Virus record (IMG/VR): IMGVR_UViG_638341084_000018
Coordinates: 1 to 6,517 of that record
Reading direction: 5' to 3' (one strand)
Origin: a virus
Taxonomy: Duplodnaviria; Heunggongvirae; Uroviricota; Caudoviricetes
Length of the DNA: 6,517 nucleotides
Shown: piece after piece, positions 1 to 3,000 of the stretch
Position numbering within the stretch: position 1 is the stretch's first letter
How the letters are laid out: the number at the start of each line of letters is the position of its first letter
Position numbers: made by a program

Positions 1-3000
1 ACCCGAAACGAACGGAACGCGCTGGAATCCGCATATAACCCGTTGTAAAGTGAGGATATGGACACCTCACTTGCTCATGAGAACGCCCGCCTGCGGGCAC
101 TGTTGCAGACGCAACAGGACACCATACGCCAGATGGCTGAATACAACCGCCTGCTCTCACAGCGGGTGGCGGCTTATGCTTCCGAAATCAACCGGCTGAA
201 GGCGCTGGTTGCGAAACTGCAGCGCATGCAGTTCGGTAAAAGCTCAGAAAAACTTCGCGCTAAAACCGAACGGCAGATACAGGAAGCACAGGAGCGAATC
301 AGCGCACTTCAGGAAGAAATGGCGGAAACGCTGGGTGAGCAATATGACCCGGTACTGCCATCCGCCCTGCGCCAGTCTTCAGCCCGTAAACCGTTACCGG
401 CCTCACTTCCCCGTGAAACCCGGGTCATCCGGCCGGAAGAGGAATGCTGCCCGGCCTGTGGTGGTGACCTCAGTCCTCTGGGGTGTGATGTGTCAGAGCA
501 ACTGGAGCTTATCAGCAGCGCCTTTAAGGTTATCGAAACACAACGTCCGAAACTGGCCTGTTGTCGGTGCGACCATATCGTGCAGGCAACAGTACCTTCA
601 AAACCCATTGCACGCAGTTATGCCGGAGCGGGGCTTCTGGCCCATGTTGTTACCGGGAAATATGCAGACCATCTGCCGTTATACCGCCAGTCAGAAATAT
701 ACCGTCGCCAGGGCGTGGAGCTGAGCCGCGCCACGCTGGGGCGCTGGACAGGTGCCGTTGCTGAACTGCTGGAGCCGCTGTATGACGTCCTGCGCCAGTA
801 TGTGCTGATGCCCGGTAAAGTCCATGCTGATGATATCCCCGTCCCGGTCCAGGAGCCGGGCAGCGGTAAAACCCGGACCGCCCGGCTGTGGGTCTACGTC
901 CGTGATGACCGTAACGCCGGTTCGGAAATGCCCCCGGCGGTCTGGTTCGCGTACTCACCGGACCGGAAAGGTATCCATCCACAAAATCATCTGGCCGGTT
1001 ACAGCGGTGTGCTTCAGGCCGATGCTTACGGTGGTTACCGGGTGTTATACGAATCCGGCAGAATAACGGAAGCCGCGTGTATGGCTCATGCCCGGAGAAA
1101 AATCCACGATGTGCATGCAAGAGTGCCCACCGACATCACCACGGAAGCCCTGCAGCGTATCGGTGAACTGTATGCCATAGAGGCAGAAGTCCGGGGATGT
1201 ACAGCAGAACAGCGTCTGGCGGCAAGAAAAGCCAGAGCTGCGCCACTGATGCAGTCACTGTATGACTGGATACAGACTCAGATGAAAACACTGTCGCGTC
1301 ACTCGGATACGGCAAAAGCGTTCGCATACCTGCTGAAACAGTGGGATGGCCTGAACGTGTACTGCAGTAATGGCTGGGTGGAAATCGACAACAACATCGC
1401 AGAGAACGCCTTACGGGGAGTGGCCGTAGGCCGGAAAAACTGGCTGTTCGCGGGTTCCGACAGCGGTGGCGAACATGCGGCGGTGTTGTACTCGCTGATC
1501 GGCACATGCCGTCTGAACAATGTGGAACCAGAAAAATGGCTGCGTTACGTCATTGAGCATATCCAGGATTGGCCGGCAAACCGGGTACGCGATCTGTTGC
1601 CCTGGAAAGTTGATCTGACCTCTCAGTAAATATCAATACGGTTCTGGCGAGCCGCTTACACTGTATCTGCTTTTTATCCGCATCCAGTATCACCACCTGC
1701 GTGATTACCCTGGCCTGCTCCGGAATAATACCATTCTCATCTGACTCCAGGATGTCTGCCGGCCCCAGACGCAGTTGTGCTGTAAGTAACTCCCCGTGTT
1801 CACGGTCATCATGCTTTCCGTACCCGCACAGACGCTGCATAAGTTTTTTTAGTACGTTCATGTCATTCTCCTGTTCTGCCTGTATCACTGCCCACTTCAT
1901 CCAGCCCCTTAACATCCTGCCACGGCCCGTCACCAAACCTGACCTGCAAATGCTGAAACAGCCCCTGAACCTGTGTGGCATCTTTGGGGTCAAGAAAGGT
2001 CAGTCCGGTGATGAGCGCACCATCTGTACCCGGGAACCAGCCATTGCTGTTTGTCTCAATAATGCTCGCCGGCCCCAGACGAAAACGGATTTGTGTCTCC
2101 CCCGGGTCGCCCTTCGGTCCCTGAGGTCCGGTTGCCCCCACCGGGCCAGCCGCACCTGTTTCTCCTTTCGGTCCCTGTGGGCCTGCCGGGCCTGCCGCAC
2201 CGGTATCTCCCTTTGGACCCTGTGGACCTGCATTTCCCGTCAGACCGGTCTCTCCCCGCTCTCCCCTGTCACCTTTCGGCCCCTGCGGGCCTGCCGGACC
2301 AGCATCACCTGCCGGTCCCCGTTCGCCGGTTGCCCCGACAGGGCCGGTGTCACCGCGCTCTCCCTTATCACCCTTCGGCCCCTGAGGACCCGCGGGCCCC
2401 TGTTCCCCCTTTGGCCCGGGAGGTCCCACCACGGTGGGGATTCGGTTTACGGCCTCTTCCGCCGCTATCCTGCTTTGTTCCGCTGACTGTGCGCTTTCTG
2501 CTGACTCCCGGGCTTTTTCTGTTGCGGTCGTTGCATCCCTGGCTGCATTACCGGCTGCACTTTCTGCCGTCTTTCTTGACAATTCAGCATCTGCTGCACT
2601 TTGTGATGACTCACTGGCTTTTTGAGCGGCCGCAGAGGCCGAGGACGAGGACGCCTCCTCTGACTGCTTTGCAGCGGCTGCACTTTCTGCCGCCTGCCGG
2701 GCTGACTCCGATGCATCCCCTGCTGAAGTGTCAGCATTTGCAGCGCTCTCTTCTGCCTGACTGGCTGATATGCCGGCATTCCTCGCTGATGTCTCCGCCT
2801 CTCCGGCATTCTTCTTCGCCTCCTCTGCGTGACGCGCCGCTTCTTCCACCATCAGTTCAAAACGACGCATTGCCTCCGGCCGGACGTCATCCTCCGACAT
2901 GGCACCGAGAAAATCATTCAGCGTCCCCGGTTGAGAATCTTCATACACGGTGATGGTCCCGGCATGTGATGGAGGGAATCCCTCCACCAACAGAGTGACG

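Follow-up and report, generated by a model that had tools for sequence, protein, structure and literature searches.

An IS679 insertion has truncated a small tail fibre C-terminal domain gene directly downstream of stf in a defective lambdoid prophage

In the prophage considered here, the side tail fibre gene stf is followed directly by a small gene that has been cut in two by an insertion sequence (IS). The DNA in question, hereafter the window, is a stretch of 6,517 nucleotides (positions 1 to 6,517 of IMG/VR virus record IMGVR_UViG_638341084_000018) that matches the genome of Escherichia coli FDAARGOS_1059 (NZ_CP066032.1) exactly, in reverse orientation. IS679 has transposed into codon 68 of an 89-codon gene immediately 3′ of stf, duplicating the target ACTGTATC. 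The uninterrupted gene encodes a "phage tail fiber C-terminal domain" protein of the families PF06820 (Phage_fiber_C, or PfC) and phrog_576, homologous to open reading frame (ORF) 68 of the Shiga toxin (Stx) 2 phage Sp5. The truncated copy is a pseudogene, and the insertion an ordinary gene-killing step in the decay of a prophage. Taken together, the insertion event, the identity of the gene and its standing as a real, fibre-linked gene form what is very probably the best overall explanation of the locus. Both the truncation and the gene family are already present in public annotation and in the literature, and the novelty of the finding is low.

The insertion itself can be read directly from the source genome. 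In the stretch of that genome that was analysed (L003), IS679 occupies positions 6397-9100 (2704 bp) and is flanked on both sides by ACTGTATC (6389-6396 and 9101-9108). The initial annotation had asked whether the 8-bp flank seen in the window recurs at the other end of the element, and it does. Both ends of IS679 carry GTAAGCG termini, one of which reads on the minus strand from window position 1659, exactly where a right-hand IS66 terminus had been placed. In E. coli O55:H7 strain DEC5A the site is empty, with a single ACTGTATC inside an intact 270-nt gene (WP_001101707.1), which provides the uninterrupted, full-length 89-codon copy that was to be sought among relatives. Since the octamer is present at both ends of the IS and only once in the empty site, the event was a simple transposition. 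Neither an empty site with two copies of the octamer nor homologues that end at position 1660 were found; intact homologues instead run 22 codons past 1660, which bears out the claim that the gene was truncated by an IS66-family element. The rest of the gene, its 3′ end, is found beyond IS679 in the source genome, and RefSeq already lists both halves as pieces of a pseudogene ("missing C-terminus" and "missing N-terminus"). The exact IS679 junction occurs in one of 5426 complete E. coli genomes.

IS679 has all the hallmarks of the IS66 family. Its TnpC matches the Pfam domain DDE_Tnp_IS66 (E = 1.3e-103) together with zf-IS66, LZ_Tnp_IS66 and IS66_C, tnpA and tnpB are annotated upstream in L003, and the GTAAGCG inverted repeats and 8-bp duplication are both present; RefSeq names the transposase "IS66-like element IS679 family transposase". 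The window also contains part of a second IS66-family element, ISEc22. The two had been taken for copies A and B of one element, but they are distinct, their TnpC proteins being 47% identical. IS66-family insertions have hit the small-gene spot repeatedly. In one IMG/VR contig (L194), the small gene runs into an IS66-family end (GTAAGCGGCTCG) after 7 nt, and in strain SCPM-O-B-9504 (L205, 3570-3715) ISCro1 sits just downstream of an intact small gene, with the end of its tnpC about 145 nt away.

What did the insertion remove? The Cys68 codon is rebuilt by the GT at the IS terminus, so that 68 native residues are kept; the last 21 (codons 69-89) are lost, and 35 IS-encoded residues are gained in their place. 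A split into 67 native and 36 IS-derived codons had been proposed, which is right to within the junction codon, the actual figures being 68 native-identical and 35 IS codons. The window copy stops at position 42 of the 64-position PF06820 profile and thus lacks a complete domain (1-64), which makes it a pseudogene of the small PfC family. The missing third of the domain includes the LQ...DG.W motifs, conserved between the small-type PfC domain and that of Stf. IS679 has also severed the small gene from its intrinsic terminator.

The identity of the gene rests on profile searches. The 67-residue native piece matches PF06820 with 68.7 bits (E = 5.6e-19; profile positions 1-42 of 64), against a Pfam gathering cut-off of 25 bits, and the restored 89-residue protein, which represents the ancestral gene and not the truncated copy in the window, matches phrog_576 over residues 1-89 of 89 (E = 3.8e-59). 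A product that the initial annotation could not assign can therefore be placed in a family. The 68 native residues are 100% identical to WP_001101707.1 of DEC5A. In the small protein, a short, variable N-terminal stretch (about 27 residues) precedes a single PfC domain. When residues 29-88 are compared with the PfC domain of the Stf encoded in the window, identity is 37% (E = 5e-14), and the motifs RLGPA...LQ...DG.W are shared by the small-type and Stf domains. Experiments on the fibre protein EPclA have shown that its PfC domain trimerises and re-nucleates the collagen helix (Ghosh et al. 2012, PMC3368898). The small protein and Stf thus have paralogous PfC domains, that of Stf being its C-terminal trimerisation domain.

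Members of the family are few: a search of 1.84 billion representative proteins gave only 80 matches, and a scan of species-representative genomes yielded only E. albertii and a single Xanthomonas pisi contig. The latter (L084, 725 bp) encodes the small protein at 90% identity and is almost certainly E. coli contamination. No NCBIfam match was obtained for the small protein, a PDB sequence search returned no relative of it, and literature searches on locus tags and lambda 2B8 fibres added nothing on the small gene. A possible lipoprotein signal (L-C-G-C) was rejected, since a hydrophobic core is lacking and position 14 can be Y, C, H or R. Public records label the gene in conflicting ways: it is an "alternate tail fiber tip" produced by +1 frameshifting in KU977420 (L207, 2881-3270), a "tail fiber assembly chaperone" in OM418627 (L206, 4001-4270) and a "tail fiber protein" in many Stx phage records. 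OM418627 is the lambda h434 hybrid (Lambda h434 imm21), which carries the whole arrangement of J, lom, stf, the small gene and nleB/nleC/nleH.

The junction between stf and the small gene, which reads CAGGAGAATGACATGAAC on the minus strand, is compact. The stf stop codon TGA (1865-1863) is separated by a single spacer base (1862) from the ATG of the small gene (1861-1859), and an AGGAG (1872-1868) lies 6 bases upstream of that ATG. Direct reading thus confirms the original description of an ORF that starts one nucleotide after the stf stop, with its Shine-Dalgarno sequence inside the 3′ end of stf. Among 83 related loci, 80 have identical sequence over the 30 nt before the ATG, as well as at the TGAcATG junction; this stretch, which carries the ribosome-binding site (RBS), has the lowest nucleotide diversity of the region (pi = 0.002). 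A small PfC gene with its own RBS, directly 3′ of a fibre gene that ends in PfC, is found in the window, in 80 of the 83 loci, in an Stx1 phage and in a Salmonella prophage. The small gene accordingly carries the signals for coupled, independent initiation after stf.

Several lines of evidence indicate that this is a gene in the proper sense. Of 5426 complete E. coli genomes, 697 contain DNA comprising the end of stf and the small gene, with a median of 10 such sites in each, and 296 phage records, most of them Stx-converting phages, contain it as well. To estimate selection, IMG/VR contigs were picked only by a 20-nt junction word, since a choice by protein similarity biases the ratio of nonsynonymous to synonymous polymorphism (pN/pS) downward. 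In this sample, exactly 89 codons are kept in 108 of 119 complete copies, and at a synonymous diversity of about 0.13, pN/pS is 0.19 overall, 0.08 in codons 28-89 (the PfC part) and 0.48 in the N-terminal 25 codons, while it exceeds 1 in the two other forward frames and on the reverse strand. The stop codon of the small gene is followed, in all variants seen, by a terminator hairpin (AAAACCGGAG...CTCCGGTTTT) and a U run, with a folding energy of -21.3 kcal/mol (z = -4.0). This hairpin escaped a simple terminator scan, probably for want of T residues beyond its A/U-extended stem. Directly after the hairpin, sequence conservation collapses. Because the conserved block extends through the terminator and then ends, the small gene is part of the fibre module, not of the effector cargo. 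On these grounds it is a real gene under strong purifying selection and appears not to be a relic. The initial annotation had suggested a genuine gene arranged for coupling to stf, and this is supported by the conserved junction, the 108 intact copies and the low pN/pS over the domain; the lack of conservation in related prophages that would have spoken against it is not seen, the ORF being strongly conserved.

The pairing of a PfC-tipped fibre gene with a free PfC gene predates these prophages. The same pair follows the EPclB fibre of the short-tailed Stx1 phage AU6Stx1 (KU977420). In a Salmonella enterica prophage with contractile-tail baseplate genes (L208, 3376-4270; also L209 and L210), a 212-residue fibre that has no collagen region, but ends in PfC, is encoded by a gene that overlaps a free 79-residue PfC gene by 14 nt, the latter being preceded by AGGAGG and a 6-nt spacer before its ATG. 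Downstream come a terminator of the same CCGGAG/CTCCGG kind and, after it, NleG/SopA-type cargo. When E. coli is compared with Salmonella, identity is 62% for the small-type PfC domains and 40% for the fibre-type domains, as against 30-37% for comparisons across the two types. The duplication is therefore old, and the two copies have been kept together, with the small copy being the better conserved. Judged from these loci, the pair has been retained across three tail types and two genera.

Recombinant and repeated forms of the PfC domain also occur. P0176 is a 343-residue E. coli Stf in which the collagen region is fused directly to a small-type PfC domain, and P0063 is a fragment of the same fusion, while P0121 (92 residues) joins the N-terminus of the small gene to the C-terminal half of the Stf PfC domain. 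In a fibre-like metagenomic protein of 565 residues, P0146, collagen repeats are preceded by four tandem modules (VVVLDAD...ILxVRRADGTWxEI) that resemble the C-terminal half of the small-type PfC domain.

Why would a phage keep a free copy of the tip domain of its own fibre? In intact phages, translation of the small protein from the fibre mRNA would start at its own AGGAG-ATG by coupled initiation. The protein might then serve as a non-essential fibre accessory that, by way of PfC-PfC contacts, helps the tip to trimerise or caps it. Selection, the conserved RBS of its own and the pairing with PfC-tipped fibres across three tail types narrow the functional options. We infer such a role, with coupled initiation and PfC-PfC contacts and in preference to a relic, only tentatively, giving it slightly less than an even chance. 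Several observations weigh against it. In the junction-word sample, 11 of the 119 copies (about 9%) are disrupted, including one by an IS66-family insertion 7 nt into the gene. The AlphaFold2 monomer of the small protein, built from a 9-sequence alignment that so small a family gives no means of deepening, is poor, with a mean pLDDT of 54; the same failure for the PfC domain was reported in a preprint on phage phi24B. Sp5 ORF68, described as an 89-residue protein with a PfC domain, is among the non-essential late genes of that phage, and its deletion had no reported effect on plaque formation or lysogenisation (PMC5155283). Any role would thus be dispensable in the laboratory.

That dispensability, the disrupted copies with their additional IS66-family insertion and the narrowness of the family would all suit a functionless, decaying remnant of a duplicated stf 3′ end, in which case the truncation would be inconsequential. 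Such a remnant is very improbable, as it would not be expected to show a pN/pS of 0.08 over the domain with appreciable synonymous diversity and values above 1 in the other frames, to be intact in 91% of the sampled copies or to stay paired with a fibre gene across three tail types and two genera. A more serious alternative, though still an unlikely one, is that the gene is a silent reservoir cassette, a spare PfC segment that is recombined onto stf to change the tip while the free 89-residue protein has no role; a reservoir for fibre variation was suggested for ORF68 by Mondal et al. (2016, PMC5155283). The natural chimeras P0176, P0063 and P0121 show that such recombinants exist, but they are singletons or form tiny clusters, compared with thousands of intact 89-residue members. 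Moreover, a cassette does not need an RBS and ATG of its own, yet these are conserved in E. coli and Salmonella, and it does not call for strong purifying selection in the frame of the small gene. For a diversity cassette, one would expect the small-type PfC domain to be less well conserved than the fibre type, whereas it is the better conserved of the two.

The small ORF could also be joined to Stf as an alternate tip by a programmed +1 frameshift near the stf stop, as implied by the label atfT in the Stx1 phage AU6Stx1, for which the GenBank note of KU977420 proposes a slippery sequence and a pseudoknot. In E. coli as in Salmonella, the small ORF is indeed shifted by +1 relative to the fibre gene, its frame is open for 46 codons upstream of the ATG in the window, and tandem PfC-like modules are found in the metagenomic fibre P0146. 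The stf stop is UGA-C, a weak stop context, as established from prfB. However, the P-site codon GAA (in GAA UGA C) cannot re-pair on AAU, and a prfB-like slippery sequence is thus missing; the AGGAG overlaps the P-site codon, whereas in prfB it lies 3 nt upstream; and, at z = +1.55, the 161-nt junction RNA shows less structure than its shuffled counterparts. The long upstream open frame is not shared by Salmonella, where the frame of the small ORF closes two codons ahead of the ATG; the RBS and ATG of the small gene are conserved. A search by Mondal et al. for a frameshift signal was negative (PMC5155283). Frameshifting is accordingly quite improbable. The initial annotation had named two candidates, moron cargo or a tail fibre assembly gene of the kind that lambda carries as tfa directly 3′ of stf, and the label "tail fiber assembly chaperone" in OM418627 and the type III effector genes (moron-type cargo) that follow the small gene would agree with this. 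Nevertheless, PF06820 is the sole Pfam match at E values up to 1, and with no Tfa-family domain the protein falls outside the Tfa family. A separate "tail fiber assembly protein" remnant lies further downstream among the effector genes, so the ancestral tfa was a different gene, and conservation of the block formed by stf and the small gene stops at the terminator that precedes the cargo. The gene appears to be neither of the two, and we consider a Tfa-type or moron identity to have very little chance of being correct. Overall, the reservoir, frameshift and relic explanations are weaker than that of a fibre accessory.

The accessory role could also be cast in a broader form. The fibre gene and the small gene may constitute an old, obligately paired module of long-, short- and contractile-tail phages, in which the small protein is a new, "homotypic" kind of partner, unrelated to Tfa, that would template or cap the tip by means of a copy of the fibre's own trimerisation domain. 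We regard this as possible but doubtful, and if it were true, the window would show merely a dead copy.

The layout of the window is given in Table 1. The domains of Stf are PF08400 (residues 3-135), PF01391 (253-311) and PF06820 (365-428), and these three Pfam matches place PfN, collagen and PfC as in the EPclA order PfN, coiled coil, collagen, PfC, an architecture defined in PMC3368898. The N-terminal domain of Stf (RefSeq residues 1-93; window 2888-3176) has a PDB relative, 9e7m/9mgh, "Tail fiber protein" (E = 2e-52), while a PDB search gave no solved structure covering the PfC domain. The prophage is lambdoid and long-tailed, and was already defective apart from the event described here: the host-specificity gene J is split by ISEc22, and nleB2, nleC and nleH are damaged. 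J was interrupted by a simple insertion of ISEc22 (2454 bp; L003, 12372-14841), and the 5′ part of the gene continues beyond the IS. The end of the prophage past IS679 is heavily decayed. In this region (L003, 1-6400), nleB2 has an internal stop, nleC is truncated and nleH is frameshifted, and a third IS66-family element, ISCro1, is found along with an intact nleF and the tfa remnant.

Table 1. Features of the 6,517-nt window
Feature	Position	Strand	Remarks
IS679, right-hand 1659 bp	1..1659	+	IS66 family; tnpC 58-1629; terminal repeat ends ...CGCTTAC at 1659
ACTGTATC, one copy of the 8-bp target-site duplication from IS679	1660..1667		Second copy at other IS end
Chimeric ORF, 103 residues	1550..1861	-	68 native-identical residues, then 35 IS679 antisense residues and stop; from ORF listing and direct reading of junction codon T/GT
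Small PfC-domain gene, native 5′ part	1660..1861	-	Codons 1-67 and first base of codon 68
AGGAG Shine-Dalgarno of small gene	1868..1872	-	Within final stf codons, 6 bases before ATG; read directly
stf, EPclA-type collagen-like side tail fibre, 437 residues	1863..3176	-	PF08400, PF01391, PF06820; RefSeq coding sequence
lom (Ail/Lom family outer membrane protein)	3241..3864	-	PF06316, E = 8.5e-51; RefSeq coding sequence
Host-specificity gene J, 3′ fragment cut by ISEc22	3933..4938	-	RefSeq J pseudogene pieces on either side of ISEc22
GAGCCAGA, 8-bp duplication	4931-4938		Found at both ISEc22 ends
ISEc22, left part	4939..6517	+	IS66 family; GTAAGCG start; tnpA 5020-5424, tnpB 5421-5768, tnpC from 5817; RefSeq name

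The truncation itself matters little, being one more IS insertion, recorded by RefSeq, in a prophage that was already broken. The gene that was hit is of modest interest, as it is present in about 10 copies per enterohaemorrhagic E. coli genome and in most Stx phages, under three conflicting annotations.

Set against known systems, IS679 shows the same tnpA-tnpB-tnpC layout, termini and 8-bp duplication as other IS66-family insertions and differs from them in nothing, making this a textbook simple insertion. The invertible fibre tips of Mu, P1 and e14, as well as frameshifting of the prfB type, each give one fibre gene two C-termini, which is what the "alternate tip" label proposes. Unlike the invertible tips, the small gene has the same orientation as stf, and no invertible segment or invertase appears in the annotations of the locus, in which inverted repeats were not searched for. 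Lambda Tfa resembles the small protein in that both are encoded directly downstream of a fibre gene and both are candidate helpers of tip folding; the small protein, however, is a paralogue of the fibre's own tip domain and has no sequence relationship to Tfa. With the PfC domain of EPclA (ECs2717-type) it shares the Pfam family, 37% identity between the domains and common motifs, but it is free-standing, and a variable N-terminus of 27 residues replaces the collagen stalk. The closest counterpart is ORF68 of Sp5 (ECs1229), which has the same 89 codons and PF06820 domain, begins one base after the stop of a collagen-like fibre gene and, with the phrog_576 family, is about 90% or more identical to the gene in the window. 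The gene described here, on the other hand, follows the EPclA fibre of a long-tailed lambdoid prophage instead of the EPclB fibre of a short-tailed phage, and its codons 69-89 have been lost to IS679.

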